Source: Acidobacteriota bacterium
GTDB taxonomy: Bacteria > Bacteroidota > Ignavibacteria > UBA10030 > UBA8401
Direction of reading: 5' to 3'
Assembly (NCBI GenBank): GCA_050258555.1
Contig: JBLMZA010000043.1
Span: 2,372 to 66,371 of the forward strand
DNA length: 64,000 nt
The notes below the pieces were generated by a model that was not told the origin of the DNA, did not search any database, and was given only the letters and a program-made list of their open reading frames with translations. Each line of letters begins with the position of its first letter. Within the stretch, counting starts at the first letter, position 1. Position numbers and translations under genes: made by a program. Shown here piece by piece: positions 13,206 to 48,681 of this stretch.

Positions 13206-14147
13206 ATGGCGATCAACACCAGAATCACGGAACTTTTTGGGATCGAATATCCTTTGAATGCAGCAGGAATGGTATGGGTGTCAGGATGGAAGCTTGCCGC
13301 CGCCGTCTCGAATGCGGGCGGACTCGGACTGATCGGCGCCGGCTCGATGAAGCCCGACCTTCTGCGTGAACATATCCGGAAGATCAAATCGGCAACGACA
13401 AAGCCCTGGGGCGTCAACCTTCCGCTTACGCGCGGCGATGTCGAGGAGCTGCTTGCCGTCATCTTCGATGAAGGAGTCAGGATCATCTTCACCTCTTCCG
13501 GAAATCCCGCCGTGTTCGCTCCCAGGCTGAAGGAAAAAGGCATGACCGTTGTGCACGTCGTGGCCGCCGTGAAGCACGCCCGGAAGGCCGAGGCCGCCGG
13601 ATGCGACGCCGTCGTGGCCGAAGGCTTCGAAGCCGGAGGACATAACGGATTCGACGAGATCACGACGCTTGCGCTTGTGCCGCAGGTTGTGGACGCCGTG
13701 ACGATACCGGTGATCGCCGCCGGCGGCATCGCCGACGGACGACAGATGCTGGCCTGCATGGCGCTCGGCGCCGAAGGCGTGCAGATCGGCACGGCATTCG
13801 CCGCCACGGCGGAATCGTCCGCGCACGAACGCTACAAGCAGTCGATCATCGAGGCCGACGACGGCGCGACGGTGCTCACGATGAAAAAAGTTTCCCCGCT
13901 GCGCATGCTCAAGACTCCGTTCGCGCTGAAGGTGATGGAAGCCGAAGCCGCAGGAAGATCTAAAGAGGAGCTGCGCGAACTCAACGGCAAGGGCCGCGAG
14001 CGCATGGGCATCTTCGAAGGAAACTGGGAGGAAGGGGAATTCGAAATGGGACAGAGCTCCGGACTCGTCAAGGAAATTCTTCCGGCCTGCGAACTCGTCC
14101 GCCGGTTCATCCGGGAATATGAGGACGCGAAAAAGAACATCGCCTGA
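13206..14147 (+). CDS. fabK: Enoyl-ACP reductase II FabK / nitronate monooxygenase family flavoprotein
   Basis: MAINTRITELFGIEYPLNAAGMVWVSGWKLAAAVSNAGGLGLIGAGS...AEGFEAGGH...VIAAGGIADG, the typical FabK/NMO TIM barrel. Start chosen at M59 of the track ORF (AGGAAAAA 6 nt upstream); the upstream extension is non-homologous. Confidence 0.8.
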   Translation: MAINTRITELFGIEYPLNAAGMVWVSGWKLAAAVSNAGGLGLIGAGSMKPDLLREHIRKIKSATTKPWGVNLPLTRGDVEELLAVIFDEGVRIIFTSSGNPAVFAPRLKEKGMTVVHVVAAVKHARKAEAAGCDAVVAEGFEAGGHNGFDEITTLALVPQVVDAVTIPVIAAGGIADGRQMLACMALGAEGVQIGTAFAATAESSAHERYKQSIIEADDGATVLTMKKVSPLRMLKTPFALKVMEAEAAGRSKEELRELNGKGRERMGIFEGNWEEGEFEMGQSSGLVKEILPACELVRRFIREYEDAKKNIA

Positions 14148-14175
14148 TCCAGGGGCGGTCACCCGCTATCACACT

Positions 14176-17100
14176 ATGACAGGACACATGAGATCATTTC
14201 TTGACACACTGAACGAAAAAGTCGTCGTCTTCGACGGCGCAATGGGCACGAACATCCAGGCGCAGATGCTCACCGCGGACGATTTCGGCGGCGAGCATCT
14301 GAACGGCTGCAACGAATACCTCGTCATCTCGAAGCCCTCGGCAATCCGGAAGGTCCATGCCGATTTTCTGGCGGCCGGCGTGGACGTGATCGAGACCGAC
14401 TCGTTCGGCTCGGCGCCCATTGTGCTTGCCGAATACCATCTCGAGAACCGGGCATACGAGCTCAACCTGAAAGCGGCGCATCTGGCCAAAAACGTCGCGC
14501 GCGATTTCTCGACGCCGACGCATCCACGCTACGTCGCCGGATCGATCGGACCCACCACGAAGCTGCCCTCGCTCGGACACATCTCGTTCAGGGAGATGAG
14601 AGAAAGTTATTATCAGCAGGTCTCGGGACTGATCGACGGCGGGGTCGATCTGCTGATGATCGAAACATGCCAGGATATTCTTCAGACGAAGGCGTGCTTG
14701 AGCGCGGTTTTTCAATGCTTTAGGGATAAGCATGTGAAGCTTCCCATTATTGCCTCGATCACGATCGAACAGACCGGCACGATGCTCATGGGCACCGAAA
14801 TCGCTGCGGCGCTGACGGCGCTCGAGCCCTTCGATATCACGGTGATCGGCATGAACTGCGCCACCGGACCGAAGGAAATGTCGGAGAACATCCGCTATCT
14901 CTGCACGAACTCGCCGCTGCCCGTGTCCTGCATTCCCAATGCGGGACTTCCCGAAAATGTCGGGGGACACGCGCATTATCATCTGTCGCCCGAGGATTTT
15001 TCGGGCTATCTCACGCATTTCGTCAAGGATCTCGGCGTCAGCGTCGTGGGCGGCTGCTGCGGCACCCGTCCCGAACATCTGAAGGCGCTTGCCGACTCCG
15101 TGGGCGGCCTCTCGCCGCGTCCGCGCGATGCCGAATATGTGCCGGGGGCGTCGAGTCTCTACGGGGCGTCGCCCTTCTATATCAATCCCGCCCCGGTGAT
15201 TGTGGGCGAGCGGGCGAATGCCAACGGATCGAAAAAATTCCGCGAGCTGCTCCAGGCCGAGGATTTCGATTCGATCGTGAATATCGGCAAGGAGCAGGTG
15301 AAGGAAGGGGCGCACATTCTCGATCTGTGCGTGGCGTACGTGGGGCGCGATGAGGTGCGCGACATGCACGAGGCGGCCTACCGCTACAACACGCAGGTGC
15401 CGCTGCCGGTGATGATCGATTCGACCGAGGCGCCGGTGATCGAAGAGGCGCTGCAGCTGTTTGCGGGAAAGTGCATCATCAATTCGATCAATATGGAGGA
15501 CGGGGAGGAGCGCATCGACAAGATCGTGCCGCTGTGCCGGCAGTACGGAGCCGCCGTCGTGGCGCTGACGATCGACGAAGCCGGCATGGCCAAGACGGCG
15601 GAAAAGAAGGTCGAGATCGCCGGGCGGATCTATTCGCTTGTCGTCGGCAAGTACGGCATGAAGCCGCACGACCTCATCTTCGACACGCTCACGTTCACGC
15701 TCGGATCGGGCGAGGAGGAATTCCGCCGCGCCGGCATCGAGACGATCGAGGCGATCCGTCTGATCAAGGAGCGCTTCCCGCAGGTGAAGACCATTCTCGG
15801 CGTGAGCAATATTTCGTTCGGACTCGGCGCGCACATGCGCCATGTGCTCAATTCCGTGTTCCTGCATTACGCGATCGAAGCCGGCCTCGATATGGCGATC
15901 GTGAATGCGCAGAAGATCCTGCCTCTCTACAAGATCGACGAGAAAGGACGGGAGCTCTGCCGGCAGCTGATCTTCGACGAGCGGCGGTTCGAGGGCGGCG
16001 TATGCACATTCGATCCGCTCATGGAGCTGATGGCGTACTATGCTGACAAAAAATCCGCGCTGAAGGAGGAAAAGAAGGAGCGCGCCGGCACGATCGAGGA
16101 GATCCTGAAGGCGCGCATCATCGACGGAGACCGTCAGGGATTGAACGAGGACCTCGAAGCGGCGTTGAAAAACTATACGGCGCTGGACATCATCAATACG
16201 ATCCTGCTGGACGGAATGAAGACCGTGGGCGAGCTCTTCGGACGCGGCGACATGCAGCTGCCGTTCGTGCTCCAGTCGGCAGAGGTGATGAAATCGGCCG
16301 TCGCCTATCTCGAGCAGTACATGGAAAAATCGGAAACGACCACGAAGGGATCGATCGTGCTGGCGACCGTGAAGGGCGACGTCCACGACATCGGCAAGAA
16401 TCTCGTCGATATCATCCTCACCAATAACGGATATAAGGTGCACAACCTCGGCATCAAGCAGCCGATCGAACACATCATCAAGACGTTCGAGGAAACGAAT
16501 GCCGATGCGATCGGCATGTCGGGCCTCCTGGTGAAGTCGACGCTCGTGATGAAGGAAAACCTCGAGGTGCTGAACGAACGCGGCCTCACGCCGCCGATCG
16601 TGCTCGGCGGCGCGGCGCTCACGCGGCGCTACGTGGAGAACGATCTGCGCGCGGTCTACAAGGGCGTCGTCAGCTATGCCGGCGACGCCTTCGACGGCCT
16701 GCACTTCATGGAAAAACTGAAGAATGAAGGCGCCGCAAGTTTCGACATCGGCCGTGCGGCCGCCGCCGAGGAAGACAGCGAGGAGGTGCTCACCGGCACC
16801 GAAGCGAAGATCGCCCTGTCGATGAAGGAAGTCGGCACATCGGCAATCGTCCCGGCCGAGGACATTCCGTCGCCGCCGTTTTGGGGAACGAAGATCGTCG
16901 AAGATCTTTCTCTGGAGGACATTTACCGCTACGTCAACGAATCGGCGCTCATCAAGGGACAGTGGCAGGTGAGAAAGGGAAGGCGCACGGAGGAGGAATA
17001 CCGCCGGCAGCTGGAGACATCGGTGTATCCCGATCTGAAGGAGCTGAAGGACCTGTGCATGCGCGAACGTCTCCTGGTGCCCAAGGTGGTCTATGGATAT

Positions 17101-17658
17101 TTCCCGTGCCAGTCGTCGGGCAATGATCTCATCATATACGAGGACGATCGGAAGACGGAACGCACGCGCTTCACATTCCCGCGCCAGAAGGACGACCGTC
17201 ATCTCTGCCTGGCCGATTATTTTGCGTCGGTCGGATCGGGAAGAATCGACGTCGTCGCATTCCACCTGGTGACGATGGGACGGCGGGCATCGGAATATTC
17301 GGCCGCGCTGTTCGCGGCGAACGACTACAAGAAGTATCTGTATTTCCACGGCCTGAGCGTGGAATCGACCGAGGCGCTTGCCGAGCTGTGGCACAAGCGG
17401 ATCCGGGAGGAACTCGGCATCGCCGGACAGGATGCGCCTGATATCCGCCGGCTCTTCAGCCAGGGGTACCGCGGATCGCGCTACAGTTTCGGGTATGCCG
17501 CATGTCCGAACCTCGAGGACCATGTGAAGCTCTTTGCGCTGCTCGAGCCGGGCAGAATCGGCGTGAAGCTCACGGAGGAATTCATGCTCGAGCCCGAACA
17601 GTCGACCGATGCGATCATCGTGCATCATCCGCAGGCCAAGTATTTCAACATCAAATAG
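14176..17658 (+). CDS. metH: Cobalamin-dependent methionine synthase MetH
   Basis: All four modules are present: Hcy-binding (VFDGAMGT), pterin-binding, B12-binding (DVHDIGKN...GLSGLL) and the AdoMet reactivation domain. The start could also be ATG 14188. Confidence 0.9.
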   Translation: MTGHMRSFLDTLNEKVVVFDGAMGTNIQAQMLTADDFGGEHLNGCNEYLVISKPSAIRKVHADFLAAGVDVIETDSFGSAPIVLAEYHLENRAYELNLKAAHLAKNVARDFSTPTHPRYVAGSIGPTTKLPSLGHISFREMRESYYQQVSGLIDGGVDLLMIETCQDILQTKACLSAVFQCFRDKHVKLPIIASITIEQTGTMLMGTEIAAALTALEPFDITVIGMNCATGPKEMSENIRYLCTNSPLPVSCIPNAGLPENVGGHAHYHLSPEDFSGYLTHFVKDLGVSVVGGCCGTRPEHLKALADSVGGLSPRPRDAEYVPGASSLYGASPFYINPAPVIVGERANANGSKKFRELLQAEDFDSIVNIGKEQVKEGAHILDLCVAYVGRDEVRDMHEAAYRYNTQVPLPVMIDSTEAPVIEEALQLFAGKCIINSINMEDGEERIDKIVPLCRQYGAAVVALTIDEAGMAKTAEKKVEIAGRIYSLVVGKYGMKPHDLIFDTLTFTLGSGEEEFRRAGIETIEAIRLIKERFPQVKTILGVSNISFGLGAHMRHVLNSVFLHYAIEAGLDMAIVNAQKILPLYKIDEKGRELCRQLIFDERRFEGGVCTFDPLMELMAYYADKKSALKEEKKERAGTIEEILKARIIDGDRQGLNEDLEAALKNYTALDIINTILLDGMKTVGELFGRGDMQLPFVLQSAEVMKSAVAYLEQYMEKSETTTKGSIVLATVKGDVHDIGKNLVDIILTNNGYKVHNLGIKQPIEHIIKTFEETNADAIGMSGLLVKSTLVMKENLEVLNERGLTPPIVLGGAALTRRYVENDLRAVYKGVVSYAGDAFDGLHFMEKLKNEGAASFDIGRAAAAEEDSEEVLTGTEAKIALSMKEVGTSAIVPAEDIPSPPFWGTKIVEDLSLEDIYRYVNESALIKGQWQVRKGRRTEEEYRRQLETSVYPDLKELKDLCMRERLLVPKVVYGYFPCQSSGNDLIIYEDDRKTERTRFTFPRQKDDRHLCLADYFASVGSGRIDVVAFHLVTMGRRASEYSAALFAANDYKKYLYFHGLSVESTEALAELWHKRIREELGIAGQDAPDIRRLFSQGYRGSRYSFGYAACPNLEDHVKLFALLEPGRIGVKLTEEFMLEPEQSTDAIIVHHPQAKYFNIK

Positions 17659-17778: not shown

Positions 17779-18414
17779 ATGGGAAATCTCGTATTAGTGC
17801 GCCACGGCGAATCGCAATGGAATCTTGAGAATCGCTTCACCGGCTGGGTCGATGTTCCGCTTTCGACCAAGGGTGAAGAGGAGGCCCGCGCGGCAGGCGA
17901 GAAGCTGAAGGGCTTCACATTCGACAAGGCATTCACCTCCGTGCTTCAGCGCGCCAACAAGACGCTGCAGACGATCCTCGAGGTGACGGGACAGACGGGC
18001 ATTCCCGTCGAATACGACCAGGCGCTGAACGAACGCCACTACGGCGCGCTGCAGGGACTGAACAAGGCCGAGACAGCCGAAAAATACGGAGCCGAACAGG
18101 TGAAGATCTGGCGCCGCAGCTACGATGTTCCGCCTCCGGCCGACAAGACCGAACTGAATCCCGACGGCATCAGCGAAAGCCTCAAGGATACGGCGGCGCG
18201 CACGCTTCCGTATTACGAGAAGCACATTCTGCCCGAGATCCTGGCGGGGAAGAACATCATCGTCGCCGCGCATGGCAACAGCCTGCGATCGATCGTCATG
18301 CATCTCGAGGATCTGACCAAGGAGCAGGTGCTCGAGCTCAACATTCCGACCGGCGCGCCGCTTCTGTACGTGTTCGATGCCTCCGGCGCCATTGTGGACC
18401 ACAAGTATCTCTGA
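17779..18414 (+). CDS. gpmA: 2,3-bisphosphoglycerate-dependent phosphoglycerate mutase
   Basis: [12 protein letters not shown] catalytic His motif, ERHYG and AHGNSLR. Start at M18 of the track ORF with AAGGAA upstream. Confidence 0.9.
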
Positions 18415-18450
18415 GCGCGTCCTGAATTTTTTCAACAAACCTGTGGTGAT

Positions 18451-18490
18451 GCCCGGAAAGCCGAACGCTGTTCCGGGCATATTTTTTTTG
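18451..18490 (+). terminator. Rho-independent terminator of gpmA
   Basis: 8-bp stem gcccggaa/ttccgggc with a 12-nt loop, followed by a T8 run. Confidence 0.8.
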
Positions 18491-18498
18491 AACGTGTA

Positions 18499-18527
18499 TT
18501 GATATTCCATCTTGTTTTTGCTATCAT
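18499..18527 (+). promoter_or_regulatory. Candidate sigma70-type promoter for the ferredoxin gene
   Basis: TTGATA-17 bp-TATCAT in an AT-rich 235-bp intergenic region; it would give a 5' UTR of about 115 nt. Confidence 0.35.
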
Positions 18528-18649
18528 TCACAATACAATAATAGGACCGGCTAACACCATCCCTGTACAACACTGCATAGAAGTATAGGAATTATATACA
18601 CTTTCAATCACCCCCTTACTATTTTTTTCTTGTTCAAGGAGACAGTCTC

Positions 18650-18988
18650 ATGGCAACAAAGATCACAGATGAATGCATCAACTGCGGTGCATGCGAACCC
18701 GAATGCCCCAACACGGCCATCTACGCCGGCGGCGCACAGTATGAACTGAACGGCGGAACGTTCGACGCGCTGTCGAACGACTTCTACTACATCGTTCCCG
18801 AGAAGTGCACGGAATGCGTCGGCCACTTCGACCAGGAACAGTGCGCGTCGGTCTGCCCGGTCGACTGCTGCGTCCCCGATCCGGACCGCGTCGAATCGGA
18901 AGAGGCGCTTCTCGAGCGCGCAAAGGCGATTCATCCCGAGCGTGAGTTCGGCGAACTGAGCGCGGCAAACTCGCACTACCGCAAGTAA
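18650..18988 (+). CDS. 2x[4Fe-4S] ferredoxin
   Basis: [12 protein letters not shown] and [21 protein letters not shown] cysteine clusters; AAGGAGA Shine-Dalgarno 8 nt upstream. Confidence 0.85.
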
Positions 18989-19006
18989 GGCTGTATGACC
19001 ATACAA

Positions 19007-19043
19007 AGTCGGTTTGTCGCATTCGATGAACCGGCTTTTTTTA
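19007..19043 (+). terminator. Possible intrinsic terminator/attenuator between the ferredoxin and Rieske genes
   Basis: 8-bp stem with one G-U pair (agtcggtt/aaccggct) and a 14-nt loop, followed by a T7 run. Confidence 0.45.
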
Positions 19044-19066
19044 TTTTAAACGCGTCCCGCACACAC

Positions 19067-19381
19067 ATGGCACGGATCAGAATCGCACACATCGACGAGC
19101 TCAAACCGCGGCGCGGCATCGTCCGCACCGTTCACGGAGAGGACATCGCGCTGTTCATCGTGGACGGCGCCGTTCACGCCGTCAGCAACTATTGTCCGCA
19201 TCAGCACGCCTCGAAGCTGCACGAGAGCATCGTGGAAGGGTCCGTGATCACCTGTCCGATGCACGGATGGGCGTTCGATCTCTGCACCGGCGCGCCGGTG
19301 AATGCGGCCGGCCGTCTGACGAAGTTCGCGACGGAAGTGCGGGGCGGCATCGTCTATGTCGACATCGATGACGCCGACTGA
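19067..19381 (+). CDS. Rieske [2Fe-2S] domain protein (NirD-like small Rieske ferredoxin)
   Basis: CPHQHASK...CPMHGW Rieske ligand boxes in a 104-aa protein. Start taken at M25 of the track ORF. Confidence 0.75.
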   Translation: MARIRIAHIDELKPRRGIVRTVHGEDIALFIVDGAVHAVSNYCPHQHASKLHESIVEGSVITCPMHGWAFDLCTGAPVNAAGRLTKFATEVRGGIVYVDIDDAD

Positions 19382-20324
19382 ACAGATACGGCGCAGGGCG
19401 CTCGAGCTGGGATTTGCGAAAGTGGGGATCGCCCGGGCCGACGTGCTCGAACCTGAGGCGGCCCGGCTGGAGGAATGGCTGCGCCGCGGCTACCACGCGG
19501 AGATGGAGTGGATGAGGAACTCCGTCGCCAAGCGGAGCGACGTGCGCGTGCTCGTGCCGGGTGCGAAGAGCGTGATCGTCGCAGCGGAAAATTACTATAC
19601 GCCCGTCCGCCACGGCACGGCGGCGGACGAGGGGAAGATCTCGCGCTATGCATGGGGCGACGACTATCACATCCACGCGCAGAAAAGAATCGAAGCGCTC
19701 TTTGACTGCATCAAACAAATAGAGCCCGGGGCGCCGGGACGGTACTACGTGGACACGGGCCCCGTGATGGAAAAAGCGTGGGCTGCGCGCGCGGGGCTCG
19801 GCTGGCAGGGCAAGCATTCGAACCTCATCACGCGGGAATTCGGATCGTGGGTGTTTCTGGCGGTGATCATCACGACGCTCGAACTCGACGCCGACGAACC
19901 CCTGGCCGACATGTGCGGCACCTGCAGAGCCTGCATCGATGCATGTCCGACGCAGGCGATCACCGAGCCGTATGTCGTCGATGCGGGCCGATGCATTTCC
20001 TTTCAGACGATCGAGCACCGGGGAGACATCGATGCGGAGCTTGCCGACAAATTCGGCAGCTGGGTCTACGGGTGCGATATCTGCCAGGATGTGTGTCCAT
20101 GGAACCGTTTCGCCAGGGAGACACCGCATCAGGCATATCAGCCCCGGGAAGGCGCCGCGGCGCCGAAACTCGAGACGCTGATCTCGATGACGCAGGAGGA
20201 TTTTTCGTTCCGGTTTTCAAAAAGCGCGGTCAAGCGCGCAAAACTTGCGGGACTCGTCCGGAATGCCCTGATCGCCCGGCGCAATGCGGACCGGGAGCAG
20301 GACGACGAGAGAACCCCGCACTAA
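19368..20324 (+). CDS. queG: Epoxyqueuosine reductase QueG
   Basis: QueG N-terminal domain plus two 4Fe-4S motifs (CGTCRACIDACP, CDICQDVCPWN) and a HEAT-like C-terminus. It overlaps the Rieske gene by 14 nt; the alternative start 19356 gives a 26-nt overlap. Confidence 0.85.
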   Translation: MTPTEQIRRRALELGFAKVGIARADVLEPEAARLEEWLRRGYHAEMEWMRNSVAKRSDVRVLVPGAKSVIVAAENYYTPVRHGTAADEGKISRYAWGDDYHIHAQKRIEALFDCIKQIEPGAPGRYYVDTGPVMEKAWAARAGLGWQGKHSNLITREFGSWVFLAVIITTLELDADEPLADMCGTCRACIDACPTQAITEPYVVDAGRCISFQTIEHRGDIDAELADKFGSWVYGCDICQDVCPWNRFARETPHQAYQPREGAAAPKLETLISMTQEDFSFRFSKSAVKRAKLAGLVRNALIARRNADREQDDERTPH

Positions 20325-20396: not shown

Positions 20397-21341
20397 ATGG
20401 AACCACAGCATCGCAATGTCATCATCATCGGATCGGGACCGGCAGGACTCACCGCGGGCATTTATACGGGACGCGCGAACCTTTCACCGCTGATCTTCGA
20501 AGGCATGCAGCCCGGAGGACAGCTCACAATCACCACCGAAGTCGAGAATTATCCCGGATTTCCGAACGGCATCATGGGACCGGAAATGATGGAAACCATG
20601 CGCGCGCAGGCGCTGAAATTCGGCGCGGAGTCGATGTTCAAAGAAGTCACCTCCGTCGATTTCTCGAAGCGTCCGTTTGAGATCGTCGCCGATGAGCAGC
20701 TCTATACGGCATCGGCCGTCATCGTCGCCACCGGCGCCTCGGCCAAGCTGCTCAACATTCCTTCGGAAGCCGAATACATGGGCTACGGCGTGAGCGCCTG
20801 CGCCACATGCGACGGATTCTTCTATCGGGGCAAGGAAGTGTTCGTGGTCGGCGGCGGGGACACCGCGCTGGAGGAAGCCACGTTCCTGACGCGCTTCGCA
20901 TCGAAAGTGACCGTGATCCACCGCCGCGACGAATTCCGCGCATCGAAGATCATGCAGGAGCGCGCTCTCAAGAATCCGAAGGTTTCCGTGCTCTGGGATA
21001 CCGCCGTCGACGAAGTGCTGGGGAAGAAGGAAGACGGCCGGAAATTCGTGACGGGATTGAAATTGAAGCATACGAAGACCCATGCAATAACGGAAGTCGC
21101 AGCCGACGGTCTTTTTATCGCCATCGGCCATCAGCCGAATACGAAGCTCTTCCGCGGCATGCTCGACATGGATGAGAAGGAGTATCTGAAGGTGCAGCCG
21201 GGTTCGACACGCACGAATATTCCGGGCGTGTTCGCCGCCGGCGATGTCGCCGATTCGGTCTACCGGCAGGCGGTCACCGCGGCCGGCTCGGGCTGCATGG
21301 CGGCCATCGACGCCGAACGATATCTTGAAACCATGGATTGA
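20397..21341 (+). CDS. trxB: Thioredoxin-disulfide reductase TrxB
   Basis: GSGPAG FAD motif, redox-active CATC, GGGDTA NADPH motif and C-terminal GDV.D. Confidence 0.9.
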   Translation: MEPQHRNVIIIGSGPAGLTAGIYTGRANLSPLIFEGMQPGGQLTITTEVENYPGFPNGIMGPEMMETMRAQALKFGAESMFKEVTSVDFSKRPFEIVADEQLYTASAVIVATGASAKLLNIPSEAEYMGYGVSACATCDGFFYRGKEVFVVGGGDTALEEATFLTRFASKVTVIHRRDEFRASKIMQERALKNPKVSVLWDTAVDEVLGKKEDGRKFVTGLKLKHTKTHAITEVAADGLFIAIGHQPNTKLFRGMLDMDEKEYLKVQPGSTRTNIPGVFAAGDVADSVYRQAVTAAGSGCMAAIDAERYLETMD

Positions 21342-21361: not shown

Positions 21362-21387
21362 TTCATATGCGCACATGCGCATATGAA
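21362..21387. promoter_or_regulatory. 26-bp near-perfect palindrome TTCATATGCGCA-CA-TGCGCATATGAA
   Basis: Perfect 11-bp inverted arms with a 4-nt spacer, 20 bp after the trxB stop and immediately before the trxB terminator. It may be an operator or an accessory hairpin. Confidence 0.3.
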
Positions 21388-21388
21388 A

Positions 21389-21428
21389 AAGCCCTTCTGC
21401 AATGCACGATTGCGGAAGGGCTTTTTTT
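21389..21428 (+). terminator. Rho-independent terminator of trxB
   Basis: 15-bp stem (aagcccttctgcaat/attgcggaagggctt, one G-U pair) with loop gcacg, followed by a T7 run. Confidence 0.85.
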
Positions 21429-21585: not shown

Positions 21586-21651
21586 AAAGTATATAGCGTG
21601 AACGACAACGAAGACAACCACCATCAAAAAGATCAACAGAGGAGGAAAGCC

Positions 21652-22086
21652 ATGTTAGTACGATTCCAATCCGCCCCGATTCCACAGTCGCCGCTGGAAC
21701 TGCTCTTCGACCGCGGAACGATGTTCCCCGATTTGTTCTGGCAGCCGCTTGAAGCGCGCACGAATGCGTTCCCGTATGTGAACATTGCGGACATGAACGA
21801 CACGATCCATGTGGTCGCAGAGATCCCCGGCGTGCCGAAGAGCGACATCAACATCCACCTGCAGAACGATGTGCTCACGATCAGCGGCGAGAGGAAGCGG
21901 CCCGAGGAGAAACCCGAGGCTGCGCATGTGCGGCGCGAGATCCGGTATGGACAGTTTGAACGCTCATTCAAGCTGCCGTACGAAGTGGATGCGTCGAAAG
22001 TGACGGCCGAATACAGCGACGGCGTGCTTCGCATACAGCTTCCGAAGACCGAAGCGGCGAAGCCGAGGTCGATCGATATCAAGTAA
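21652..22086 (+). CDS. Hsp20/alpha-crystallin family small heat-shock protein
   Basis: Alpha-crystallin domain (DMNDTIHVVAEIPGVPKSDINIHLQNDVLTISGERK...GQFERSFKLP...AEYSDGVLRIQLPK). GGAGGA Shine-Dalgarno 6 nt upstream. Start is M19 of the track ORF. Confidence 0.85.
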   Translation: MLVRFQSAPIPQSPLELLFDRGTMFPDLFWQPLEARTNAFPYVNIADMNDTIHVVAEIPGVPKSDINIHLQNDVLTISGERKRPEEKPEAAHVRREIRYGQFERSFKLPYEVDASKVTAEYSDGVLRIQLPKTEAAKPRSIDIK

Positions 22087-22120
22087 GCAACTGAATCGGA
22101 TTGTGAAAGGAGAAATGATT

Positions 22121-22474
22121 ATGGAACAGAATCAAACCAGACCGGCGGCCCGGCGCGTCGTGCCGGCAGCCGATATCCAGGAACTGCCTCAGTCGTATAT
22201 TGTGCGCATGGACATGCCCGGCGCATCGCGCGATGCGATCAAGGCGCAGATCGAGGAAGGCGTGCTGACCGTTGAAGTGACGGTCGATCCCTACTTCGCG
22301 AAGGACGCCACGCTGCTCGTGGACGATTCGCTGCCGATCGAATATCATCGCAAATTTTCACTGGCCGAGGACGTCGACCAGCAGGCCGTCGATGCGGCCT
22401 ACGACCTTGGTGTGCTGACCATCACGCTCAACAAGAAGCAGCATTTTCTGCCGCGCCAGATCTCGATCCAGTAA
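22121..22474 (+). CDS. Hsp20 family protein (divergent)
   Basis: Alpha-crystallin-like core (YIVRMDMPGASRDAIKAQIEEGVLTVEV...FSLAEDVD...YDLGVLTITL); AAGGAG Shine-Dalgarno 8 nt upstream of ATG 22121. Confidence 0.75.
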   Translation: MEQNQTRPAARRVVPAADIQELPQSYIVRMDMPGASRDAIKAQIEEGVLTVEVTVDPYFAKDATLLVDDSLPIEYHRKFSLAEDVDQQAVDAAYDLGVLTITLNKKQHFLPRQISIQ

Positions 22475-22529
22475 GGGGCCGGCAGGCACAGTATCAATCA
22501 ATCATGTATTCATTCAAAGGAGGATCGTT

Positions 22530-23021
22530 ATGGCACTCATGAAGCGCAATCCGTCGTCTGAGCTGGATGTGTGGAACCGCGACTTCCCGGTCGCGCGGAG
22601 TCTCCATTCCTTCCAGCGCGAAATGAACCGCATGCTTGACAATTTCTTCCGCGAAGACCTGTTCGAGGAAGGCCGTTTCGGCGGCGTCCAGGAATTCGCG
22701 CCGGCGGTCGACATCTCGGAAACGAAGGATGCCTATGTGATCAAGGCAGAGCTTCCCGGCATGAAGAAAGAGGATGTGAAGGTGACGATGAACAACAACA
22801 TCGTGACGATTTCCGGCGAGAAGAAAATCGAAGAGGAGAAGCGGGAGGGAAGCTACTATCGCATGGAGCGCTCGTTCGGTTCGTTCGAGCGTTCGATCGC
22901 CATTCCGGGTCCGGTCAAGCCGGATGACATCGAATGCAAGTACGTGGACGGCCTGCTGACTGTGTCGCTTCCGAAAACGGAAGAGGCGAAGCAGCGGGTG
23001 ATCGATGTGAAGGTGAAATAA
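22530..23021 (+). CDS. Hsp20/alpha-crystallin family small heat-shock protein
   Basis: DISETKDAYVIKAELPGMKKEDVKVTMNNNIVTISGEKK...YRMERSFGSFERSIAIP...YVDGLLTVSLPK; AAGGAGGA Shine-Dalgarno. Confidence 0.9.
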   Translation: MALMKRNPSSELDVWNRDFPVARSLHSFQREMNRMLDNFFREDLFEEGRFGGVQEFAPAVDISETKDAYVIKAELPGMKKEDVKVTMNNNIVTISGEKKIEEEKREGSYYRMERSFGSFERSIAIPGPVKPDDIECKYVDGLLTVSLPKTEEAKQRVIDVKVK

Positions 23022-23105: not shown

Positions 23106-23390
23106 TTAAACGGTCGTATCGATGTTCGGCTCCGGTATCGCCGTGACGTTTTTTCCCTTCACCATATAGCGCAGCGTGCGCTTTTCCTTCGGCGTCGAGT
23201 CGCGCTTCACGGCTCGCTCGGGCTTTTCTTTCGGCAGGACCTGTTCGAGGACCGCCTGAAGTTTCTGCTGTGTCTGCTTTTCCACATGCGCATGATGGGG
23301 CAGCGACTGTGTGCCGAGCTGCTGCTTGGCTGCATCCGCCTGGTTGACGTTCTGTGTCAGGACGCTTCCGGCTGTATTGCTGACGTTCAT
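23106..23390 (-). CDS. Small hypothetical protein (94 aa, Q/K-rich)
   Basis: Strong G/C third-position bias; GGGAGA Shine-Dalgarno 7 nt before the second ATG. No recognisable family. Confidence 0.35.
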   Translation of the reverse strand: MNVSNTAGSVLTQNVNQADAAKQQLGTQSLPHHAHVEKQTQQKLQAVLEQVLPKEKPERAVKRDSTPKEKRTLRYMVKGKNVTAIPEPNIDTTV

Positions 23391-23457
23391 GGTCATTCTC
23401 CCTTACTGTCATCATCGGCGGATGTTTCAAAATCATAAGCGTTCCGAAAAACAGTGC

Positions 23458-48072: not shown

Positions 48073-48681
48073 ATGAAATCAAAAGGACTTATCATCGCTC
48101 TGGCAGTCGTCGGCGGCATTATCCTGATCGGCATCATGACGATCACATGGGGTGTCCGCACATACAATATGCTCGTGGGCATGGACGAATCGGTCAACGG
48201 CGCCTGGTCCCAGGTGCAGAATCAATATCAGCGGCGGTTCGATCTGATCCCGAATCTCGTCGAGACCGTGAAGGGATATGCGACGCACGAAAAGGAAACG
48301 CTTGAGAATGTCACCAATGCGCGTGCGAAAGTCGGGCAGATGGTCATTTCACCCGAAGTCCTGAAAAATCCGCAGGCCTTCCAGATGTTCGAGAAGGCGC
48401 AGGGCGAACTCTCGTCGGCGCTGACGCGTCTCATGGCCGTTTCCGAGAACTATCCCAATTTGAAGGCGAACGAGAATTTCCTCCAGCTGCAGGCGCAGCT
48501 CGAGGGGACGGAAAACAGGATCTCTGTTGAGCGCCGCCGCTTCAACGAGGTCGTGCAGGCGTACAATGCCAGGATCCGGACCGTTCCGACATCGCTTGTC
48601 GCCGGCTTCGGCGGATTCACACCCAAGCAGTATTTCCAGGCTGCTGCCGGCGCAGAAGCCGCTCCGAAAGTGAAATTCTGA
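48073..48681 (+). CDS. lemA: LemA family protein
   Basis: N-terminal transmembrane helix plus the LemA domain (YNMLVGMDESVNGAWSQVQNQYQRRFDLIPNLVETVKGYATHEKETL). AAGGAG Shine-Dalgarno. Confidence 0.9.
   Translation: MKSKGLIIALAVVGGIILIGIMTITWGVRTYNMLVGMDESVNGAWSQVQNQYQRRFDLIPNLVETVKGYATHEKETLENVTNARAKVGQMVISPEVLKNPQAFQMFEKAQGELSSALTRLMAVSENYPNLKANENFLQLQAQLEGTENRISVERRRFNEVVQAYNARIRTVPTSLVAGFGGFTPKQYFQAAAGAEAAPKVKF

Follow-up and report, generated by a model that had tools for sequence, protein, structure and literature searches.

A conserved Rieske-queG-trxB operon of Ignavibacteria-like bacteria and a candidate redox partner for epoxyqueuosine reductase

Epoxyqueuosine reductase (QueG) catalyzes the last step of queuosine biosynthesis, and where it obtains electrons of very low potential has been an open question since the discovery of the enzyme. 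This question arises in a concrete form in a stretch of 64,000 nucleotides of contig JBLMZA010000043.1 (the window, here and below), in which queG is preceded by the genes of two iron-sulfur carriers, a ferredoxin (fdx) and a small Rieske [2Fe-2S] protein, and followed by a thioredoxin reductase gene (trxB). Does either of these carriers serve QueG? The locus is the local version of an operon, (MBL-fold hydrolase)-Rieske-queG-trxB (MBL, metallo-beta-lactamase), which is conserved across Ignavibacteria-like bacteria and was seen in well over 100 of the loci examined. The single most likely role of the Rieske protein, as judged from gene order and sequence, would be that of an accessory redox partner of QueG, although this reading is a tentative one, with somewhat less than an even chance of being correct. 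The member proteins are all of known families. The novelty is that a Rieske-type ferredoxin is genetically coupled, and conserved in this coupling, with a cobalamin/[4Fe-4S] reductase and with trxB, in a lineage-specific operon that had not been described.

The genes were called from the list of open reading frames and from Pfam and NCBIfam profile scans of the window, and the reading frames named in an initial annotation of this DNA were all recovered at the same coordinates. The features of the locus, all on the forward strand, are as follows.

18449-18489, +, intrinsic-terminator-like hairpin and T-run 3' of gpmA (dG -21.5 kcal/mol, z = -3.1, then AUUUUUUUU)
18499-18527, +, sigma-70-like promoter candidate 5' of fdx (TTGATA-17-TATCAT, extended TG, 10/12 consensus matches)
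18650-18988, +, fdx, a 2x[4Fe-4S] ferredoxin of the YfhL/AlvinFdx family, 112 aa (NF033683, 102.3 bits, cutoff 86)
19005-19050, +, conserved intrinsic terminator in the fdx/Rieske gap (15-bp stem and T-run; present at 15/15 fdx-to-Rieske junctions in relatives)
19067-19381, +, small soluble Rieske [2Fe-2S] protein, 104 aa (Pfam Rieske, 61.4 bits, threshold 20.3; Rieske_2, 54 bits)
19368-20324, +, queG, epoxyqueuosine reductase, 318 aa (TIGR00276, 352.9 bits, cutoff 200)
20397-21341, +, trxB, NADPH-thioredoxin reductase (TIGR01292, 419.6 bits, cutoff 343.45)
21389-21428, +, strong intrinsic terminator closing the Rieske-queG-trxB unit (the region folds at -41 kcal/mol, z = -6.2; stem, then TTTTTTT)

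The identity of the enzyme at the center of the operon is clear. The queG product matches the QueG of B. subtilis (5d08) at E 5.7e-49, and its translation, aligned to that structure, contains the DYH motif (in WGDDYHIH), eight cysteine ligands for two [4Fe-4S] clusters, CGTCRACIDACP and GRCISF...GCDICQDVCPWN. The DYH motif, which is specific to QueG, is named in PMC4646009. Two in-frame ATG codons, at 19356 and 19368, are available to queG, and, since three homologs (L001, L005 and L007) have only the equivalent of the latter, the start at 19368 is correct, together with the 14-nt overlap between the 3' end of the Rieske gene and queG that had been annotated initially. The same holds for the placement of trxB after queG. 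The product of trxB has the motifs CATC and HRRDEFR, which are found in the window and in all 18 relatives, as well as GGGDTA in the window translation; the combination of CATC and HRRxxxR rules out both a TrxR-like ferredoxin-NADP reductase and a ferredoxin-dependent thioredoxin reductase. The junction of queG with trxB is the most invariant of the operon, being present in 18/18 Ignavibacteria-like loci, and is kept even where both the Rieske and the MBL-fold genes are missing (L027). The predicted co-transcription of these two genes has no evident functional reason.

The Rieske protein has the ligand set CxH...CxxH (C43, H45, C63 and H66), which is invariant in 19 sequences of the family, down to an identity of 28%. 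Its AlphaFold2 model (pLDDT 91.6) was compared with known structures by Foldseek, and the best matches were the soluble Rieske ferredoxins of the nitrotoluene, biphenyl, carbazole, naphthalene, and toluene oxygenase systems, some of them crystallized with their partners, with template modeling (TM) scores of 0.82-0.90 and root-mean-square deviations of 1.3-2.0 A. The top 19 matches are all Rieske ferredoxins (TM 0.80-0.90), while NirD structures follow at ranks 20 and 37, and a sequence search of the PDB agrees, in that the oxygenase-system ferredoxins are again best (E 4e-11 to 1e-4). Like the window protein, the ferredoxins of this type (BphF/BphA3, CarAc, T4moC, and those of naphthalene and nitrotoluene dioxygenases) have approximately 100-110 aa and the CxH...CxxH ligands, and they share with it a box II motif of the low-potential type (CPxHGxxF, without the disulfide pair). 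They are soluble one-electron shuttles, to which the window protein is likened by both sequence and fold. The setting is different, however, as the window operon has neither an oxygenase alpha subunit nor a GR-type ferredoxin reductase, only queG and trxB, and the genetic partner of the Rieske protein is instead a cobalamin/[4Fe-4S] reductase, which needs electrons of much lower potential.

In the initial annotation, this protein was described as a NirD-like Rieske protein of 104 aa, of which the size, the coordinates, and the Rieske class stand, while the NirD label is a loose one. The protein scores below the cutoff of every NCBIfam equivalog model examined (HcaC, AndAb, NirD, and others), with 57.8 against a cutoff of 113 for HcaC, and the NirD identity in particular is rejected by TIGR02378 (55.7, cutoff 74.65) and NF007066 (22.7, cutoff 135), and by the absence of an adjoining nirB. 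The window protein and NirD do share a match to Pfam Rieske_2 (PF13806) and a similar size, and members of the family are often named "nitrite reductase small subunit" by database annotators, but a true NirD homolog (P0289) adjoins nirB (upstream), narK, and nasA, whereas the neighbors of the window protein are fdx and queG.

Within the Ignavibacteria, the family comprises 1802 clusters (90% identity) at E<=1e-5, and each of its top 120 members stands alone, with a length of 108-132 aa. Among representatives at 50% identity, the family grades into a large pool of small Rieske proteins with many unrelated fusion partners. This same small module is found in a number of multi-domain proteins (P0142, P0211, P0162, P0252, P0164, P0263 and P0133), which include a protoglobin with two Rieske domains, UbiD-Rieske, NIR_SIR-Rieske and Rieske-PSP1 fusions, and a triple tandem Rieske. 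Three fusion candidates of suggestive length (P0196, 384 aa; P0225, 429 aa; P0184, 435 aa) proved to have unrelated N-terminal regions or DUF2231. The C-terminus also varies within the family: a terminal Trp (...NW, EW, SW or RW) is conserved in the Ignavibacteriales-type proteins (L012, L017, L026, L039, L042, L044, L047 and L054), while the window-clade proteins lack it and have the acidic end DDAD. The Trp may help in the docking of a partner, in which the subclades would then differ.

The conservation of the gene order was assessed in two samples. In the species-level sample, one genome per species was scanned with QueG, which yielded 80 loci with a QueG identity of 44-71%, and these loci were searched by tblastn and with custom hidden Markov models. 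The metagenome sample, also of 80 loci, was obtained by a scan with a seven-sequence alignment of the Rieske subfamily, and is biased towards Ignavibacteriales-type Rieske proteins. The trxB gene lies directly 3' of queG in 18 of the 80 species-level loci, all of them labelled Ignavibacteria, Ignavibacteriota or "Bacteroidota MAG" (metagenome-assembled genome), and the Rieske gene is directly 5' of queG in 12 of the 17 trxB-linked loci that could be assessed on the upstream side. In the metagenome sample, 72 loci have enough sequence, and in 69 of these the Rieske gene is directly followed by queG; the three exceptions comprise one rearrangement, one insertion, and one unresolved case. In one locus (L165:10-1584), a Rieske gene with an altered C-terminus is followed by an opposite-strand NERD-like gene in the expected position of queG, which looks like a disruption by insertion.

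The close relatives of the window (Rieske identity 67-81%) all have the order fdx-Rieske-queG, although they share the entire 12-kb synteny from metH to a TolC-like gene, and are thus not independent evidence. The Rieske-queG adjacency persists where the identity of the Rieske protein drops to 28-41% and the genes beyond fdx and trxB differ. Both in the window clade and in the majority of the species-level loci, the two genes overlap by 14 or 4 nt or lie 0-9 nt apart. The pairing is strongly conserved, but it is specific to one class-level lineage, and the conservation of the adjacency, which the initial annotation had put forward as a check, therefore holds for Rieske-queG within this lineage (12/17 and 69/72) and not outside it (0/62 loci of other phyla). 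The flanks have been rearranged while the core of the operon remained intact, as can be seen from a LemA-like gene, which lies approximately 30 kb from the operon in the window (48073-48681), while a LemA-like gene and the one that follows it are directly 5' of fdx in Ignavibacteriales loci.

The limits of the transcription unit were traced with a terminator finder based on RNAfold, applied to every gene junction in approximately 170 related loci. Terminator-like hairpins were found at 15/15 junctions of fdx with the Rieske gene, at 36/43 of fdx with the MBL-fold gene, at 15/23 between two fdx genes, and 3' of trxB in 37/56 loci. Inside the operon, by contrast, they are nearly absent, with 0/78 at the junction of the MBL-fold gene with the Rieske gene (which, with a median spacing of 2.5 nt, is the tightest in the operon), 3/88 between the Rieske gene and queG, and 3/64 between queG and trxB. 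This distribution of terminators, after fdx and after trxB, marks Rieske-queG-trxB as a conserved transcription unit and fdx as a separate one. The predicted co-transcribed unit is thus (MBL)-Rieske-queG-trxB, and fdx would be a separately terminated neighbor.

The hairpin between fdx and the Rieske gene (19005-19038) has a 15-bp stem followed by TTTTTTTATTTT (dG -24 kcal/mol, z = -2.6), and is kept in seven relatives with all of its pairs maintained, two of them by compensatory changes. It had been taken for a possible attenuator at 19007-19043, and the hairpin itself is borne out by its conservation, but its anatomy is that of a canonical intrinsic terminator, rather than a regulated attenuator. 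The idea of a riboswitch or attenuator found no support, in that Rfam returned no matches at the gathering threshold anywhere in the window, and a permissive scan (E<=1) of positions 18400-19150, which include the fdx/Rieske spacer, produced no match either. The window fdx is bracketed by this terminator and by that of gpmA (18449-18489), which would insulate it on the upstream side, and it has a promoter-like site of its own at 18499-18527. In Ignavibacteriales loci, an AT-rich spacer of 50-250 nt beyond the fdx terminator leaves space for a promoter. Only about 8-16 nt separate the end of the T-run from the Rieske ATG in the window clade, which leaves no space for a conventional promoter, so that expression of the operon may need read-through of the terminator or a promoter that overlaps the 3' end of fdx. 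The operon of this clade may therefore depend on read-through from the fdx promoter, by which co-transcription with fdx would be possible, and the label of attenuator retains some standing to this extent.

The ferredoxin, which would appear to be the more obvious donor candidate, is thus probably a separate housekeeping unit. Its nearest PDB entries are 2fgo, 1blu and 2zvs (YfhL), and its translation has C56-x8-C65, a six-residue insertion where classical ferredoxins have x2, and 43 residues after C69. These are the marks of the AlvinFdx/YfhL family, in which an insertion of 6-7 aa separates two Cys ligands of one cluster and a C-terminal fragment of 27-43 aa is present; the reduction potentials of AlvinFdx-type ferredoxins are below -450 mV, and their genes, where studied, are monocistronic, constitutive, and housekeeping, being essential in P. 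aeruginosa (PMC2984482). The window fdx shares the monocistronic layout of P. aeruginosa fdx1 (PMC2984482), with its own promoter-like site and terminator, but differs from the family in an extra insertion of approximately 15 residues after the first cluster motif, which could alter its properties, and it falls outside the Proteobacteria, in which the family was first inventoried. The gene is found within 700 nt of the operon in 13/17 species loci and 32/42 metagenome loci, despite changes farther upstream, and is absent or distant in approximately one quarter of the loci. Taken together with the MBL-fold gene that intervenes between fdx and the Rieske gene in most relatives, the window fdx is better explained as a neighboring housekeeping gene than as a member of the same dedicated unit, although it would still be a possible general low-potential donor.

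In Ignavibacteriales loci, a tandem pair of YfhL-type fdx genes is common 5' of the operon (L026:2796-3623, L039, L044, L054, L096, L104-L107, and others), often with a terminator after each gene. In the window, the predicted very-low-potential ferredoxin is flanked by the genes of two cobalamin enzymes, MetH (14119-17658) and QueG, and the order metH-gpmA-fdx recurs in L008, L009 and L038, while metH is not nearby in the Ignavibacteriales loci. Given that MetH also requires reductive reactivation, a ferredoxin donor common to both enzymes is conceivable.

Most members of the wider clade have a further gene, set between fdx and the Rieske gene, for an MBL-fold hydrolase of approximately 281 aa (L008:3833-4678, L026:3788-4630, and about 75 other loci). 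The protein has an HxHxDH motif and a full-length alignment to YtnP-type lactonases, with 190-198 bits, below the equivalog cutoff of 425. The 3' end of its gene abuts or overlaps the start of the Rieske gene, and it lies directly 5' of the latter in 63/69 loci, but no homolog was found in the 64-kb window. From this distribution, we infer the ancestral order fdx | MBL-Rieske-queG-trxB, with the MBL-fold gene as the first gene of the operon. A crude tree of QueG and TrxB suggests that the MBL-fold gene was lost two or three times, in the window clade with L009, in L027, and in a peat-metagenome group with the order fdx-fdx-Rieske-queG. In the window clade, this loss leaves the Rieske gene as the first cistron of the operon. 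Where the MBL-fold gene is absent (window clade, L009, and L100-type loci), the Rieske gene stays with queG.

The initial annotation started from the premise that the donor of QueG had not been firmly identified, which is supported by the literature: in QueG, the clusters lie close to the surface of the protein, and little was known in 2015 of redox partners for any class III B12 enzyme (PMC4646009); no later identification of a donor was found in the literature searched, nor any discussion there of queuosine in the Ignavibacteria in the context of QueG and a Rieske protein. In the mechanism proposed here, the Rieske protein would be made together with QueG, and would act as an accessory, lineage-specific one-electron partner, which passes electrons to the surface-exposed [4Fe-4S] clusters of QueG, from where they would proceed to the cobalamin. 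The argument for this is that QueG is the only product of the window operon that needs an external one-electron donor, that the Rieske protein resembles a shuttle, and that the junction between the two genes is conserved and often overlapping, which makes partnership with QueG the likeliest role.

A related precedent is provided by the catabolic reductive dehalogenases (RdhA), class III B12 enzymes that draw on NADPH by way of a flavin/[2Fe-2S] reductase domain fused to them, or are encoded in clusters with ferredoxin genes (PMC10463259). The self-sufficient RdhAs carry a fused PDOR-like reductase, and the gene cluster of NpRdhA includes two ferredoxins and a ferredoxin reductase; in both cases, as here, there is a genetic link of a B12/2x[4Fe-4S] enzyme with a flavoprotein or a [2Fe-2S] carrier, and these systems suggest a route from NAD(P)H through flavin, [2Fe-2S], and the two [4Fe-4S] clusters to cobalamin (PMC10463259). 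The differences are that the [2Fe-2S] center of the RdhA systems is of the plant or PDR type, and often fused, while that of the window operon is a separate Rieske-type protein, and that the flavoprotein linked here is a true thioredoxin reductase. The cognate cluster of NpRdhA could not be reconstituted in vitro, which is a caution that genomic context alone can mislead.

A number of observations weigh against the partnership of the Rieske protein with QueG. The [4Fe-4S] clusters of QueG have potentials of -510 and -575 mV (PMC5175355), while Rieske ferredoxins of the oxygenase type lie between -112 and -173 mV (PMC4814904), so that direct reduction of QueG by the Rieske protein would be uphill by approximately 0.35 V. 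This objection is not decisive, since endergonic tunneling of such a size should be feasible for a slow enzyme with a strongly favorable overall reaction, and since related class III B12 enzymes work efficiently with NADPH and a fused flavin/[2Fe-2S] reductase domain (PMC10463259); the [2Fe-2S] center of phthalate dioxygenase reductase itself lies at approximately -174 mV (quoted in PMC4814904). In thermodynamic terms, however, the AlvinFdx-type ferredoxin would be the better-matched direct donor, even though it is not the co-transcribed component. The literature searched contains no mention of QueG with a Rieske partner, and no fusion of the Rieske protein to QueG, to the MBL-fold protein, to TrxB or to the ferredoxin turned up, either in the top 150 representatives or in the top 120 members of the family. 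The spacer between the Rieske gene and queG is 30-200 nt in many Ignavibacteriales loci. Outside the lineage, no Rieske gene is beside queG in any of the 62 remaining QueG loci, which cover the Pyrinomonadaceae and other Acidobacteriota, cyanobacteria, Flavobacteriia, Cytophagia, Planctomycetota, and others, and no small ferredoxin, rubredoxin or Rieske protein is encoded within 2 kb of queG in these loci, apart from a loose motif match in a 75-aa reading frame of L053. Nor do the closest Rieske proteins of the outgroup have queG nearby, as P0012-like proteins stand alone between divergent neighbors, and P0289 is the NirD beside nirB. Inside the lineage, the tree suggests that the Rieske gene was lost approximately four times independently (L020, L023, L027 and L031), with queG-trxB kept. 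These repeated losses, together with the absence from other phyla, would make the Rieske protein at most a dispensable, lineage-specific addition. In two of the loci that lack it (L020 and L023), the MBL-fold gene overlaps or directly abuts queG, and, as this gene has taken the same place, the tight coupling may reflect a compact operon rather than a partnership. In L017, it is the MBL-fold gene that the Rieske gene accompanies, while queG is 1.5 kb away, beyond an opposite-strand gene. Mirror-tree comparisons with partial Mantel tests on the distances of Rieske, QueG, MBL, and TrxB gave partial correlations of 0.2-0.58, with that of QueG-MBL as high as that of Rieske-QueG, and do not discriminate among the readings, probably because TrxB, the control, evolves slowly.

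Several of these points would also be expected if a general-purpose or otherwise-targeted Rieske gene had simply become fixed in a compact housekeeping operon of queG-trxB, in an ancestor of the lineage, and been inherited with it, so that the adjacency would have no functional meaning for QueG. All of the positive loci are in one clade, as would be expected if one ancestral arrangement had been passed on vertically; queG-trxB, the best-conserved junction, is likewise without an obvious functional logic; and operon inertia of this kind accords with the losses of the Rieske gene without loss of queG, with the MBL-fold gene next to queG after such losses, with the fusion of similar small Rieske domains to unrelated partners (protoglobin, UbiD, NIR_SIR, PSP1, and DUF2231), and with the lack of a redox carrier near queG in other phyla. 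Mere inheritance accounts less well for a junction that has outlasted a divergence to approximately 30-40% Rieske identity and the turnover of the flanking genes, for the finding of only 3/72 Rieske-anchored loci without queG downstream, and for the window clade, where the Rieske gene was kept tight against queG after the deletion of the MBL-fold gene. On balance, this explanation is somewhat unlikely. The specific proposition that, in Ignavibacteria-like bacteria, QueG has the co-translated Rieske protein as its physiological partner, maybe by means of an unusually low potential or of an endergonic step pulled by the reduction of the epoxide, is itself a doubtful one, although it is given slightly more credence than inheritance without function.

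The true partner of the Rieske protein could also be its other neighbor. CMP-Neu5Ac hydroxylase (CMAH) combines a Rieske center with an MBL-fold domain, and the Rieske and MBL-fold proteins of the operon could form a two-component metalloenzyme of a similar kind, of which the Rieske protein of the window clade would be an orphan. CMAH has been placed among the MBL-fold proteins and described as a Rieske protein (PMC8480522 and the reference cited there). The junction of these two genes is the tightest of the operon and free of terminators, the order is kept in 63/69 loci, and in L017 the pair stays together where an opposite-strand gene parts it from queG. The hydrolase-type HxHxDH motif and the full-length YtnP-like lactonase alignment are not obviously those of a redox enzyme, however, and the two genes separate in both directions, with the Rieske gene beside queG without the MBL-fold gene in at least three groups (window clade, L009, and L100-type), and the MBL-fold gene persisting without the Rieske gene in L020, L023 and L031. 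With no homolog of the hydrolase in the window and no MBL-Rieske fusion found, such an enzyme is distinctly unlikely.

The proposal of the initial annotation, a dedicated electron-delivery module for QueG formed by the ferredoxin and the Rieske protein together, survives in its linkage of the Rieske gene to queG within the lineage, but is weaker in the membership of fdx in the unit, given the terminators after this gene (15/15 and 36/43). The frequent proximity of fdx, the potentials below -450 mV of AlvinFdx (PMC2984482), which suit the -510/-575 mV of QueG, and the T-run close to the Rieske ATG in the window clade, where expression may need read-through from the fdx promoter, are all in keeping with a joint role of the two carriers. 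The promoter space beyond the terminator in Ignavibacteriales loci, the monocistronic, constitutive, housekeeping nature of the family (PMC2984482), and the missing or distant fdx in a quarter of the loci are not, and a series from approximately -500 mV (ferredoxin) through approximately -150 mV (Rieske) to -510/-575 mV (QueG) would be energetically senseless, while, if the ferredoxin donates directly, a Rieske protein between it and QueG would be superfluous. The full chain is accordingly rated as improbable, a shade more so than the two-component metalloenzyme.

It is also conceivable that TrxB reduces the Rieske protein, which in turn reduces QueG, in an unfused analogue of the reductase-ferredoxin-oxygenase systems and of the self-sufficient reductive dehalogenases. 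The content of the operon fits the pattern of reductase, Rieske ferredoxin, and terminal enzyme, co-transcription of queG-trxB is predicted in 18/18 loci, and TrxB belongs to the Pyr_redox_2 superfamily in the Pfam scan, as do reductases that serve Rieske ferredoxins, such as BphA4 (in complex with BphA3 in 2yvj). This TrxB is, however, a canonical low-molecular-weight thioredoxin reductase, above the TIGR01292 cutoff and with CATC and HRRxxxR in every relative, and such enzymes are not known to reduce iron-sulfur proteins. Fused NADPH/[2Fe-2S] reductase domains do drive related class III B12 enzymes (PMC10463259), but queG-trxB is also kept in loci that have lost the Rieske gene, and the trxB of the operon may be the sole one of the genome, and hence a housekeeping gene, so that an NADPH-driven system of three components is very improbable. 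The preferred reading thus remains the accessory partnership of the Rieske protein with QueG.

The value of this operon lies in the concrete candidate donor that it offers, a protein of approximately 104-120 aa. If the partnership is true, an epoxyqueuosine reductase would for the first time have a natural electron donor assigned to it, and a Rieske ferredoxin would for the first time be known to work with a cobalamin/[4Fe-4S] (class III B12) enzyme and not with an oxygenase. This would extend the partners of Rieske ferredoxins beyond the oxygenases and supply in vitro studies of QueG with a cognate reductant. If it is not, the operon represents a caution that an adjacency kept throughout a class, even where the genes overlap, need not reflect a common function.

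The locus also bears on the taxonomic label of its source. A metagenome-assembled genome with an identical Rieske protein (P0001) is labelled "Acidobacteriota bacterium" by NCBI, while its locus is syntenic with genomes labelled Bacteroidota or Ignavibacteriae (L007-L009), and with none of approximately 30 Acidobacteriota QueG loci, so that the label is probably wrong, or the contig mis-binned.

Downstream from the operon, three tandem hsp20 (alpha-crystallin) genes follow trxB in the window (21598-23021), a triplet that is kept in close relatives (L001, L007, and one further contig). Between this cluster and a TetR gene, there is a reading frame of 96 aa on the reverse strand (23106-23396), which has no Pfam match and has a counterpart of 94 aa in the same place in relatives. 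A perfect 26-nt palindrome (TTCATATGCGCACATGCGCATATGAA, 21362-21387) separates the stop codon of trxB from its terminator, 5' of the hsp20 cluster, and might serve as an operator or belong to a bidirectional terminator.

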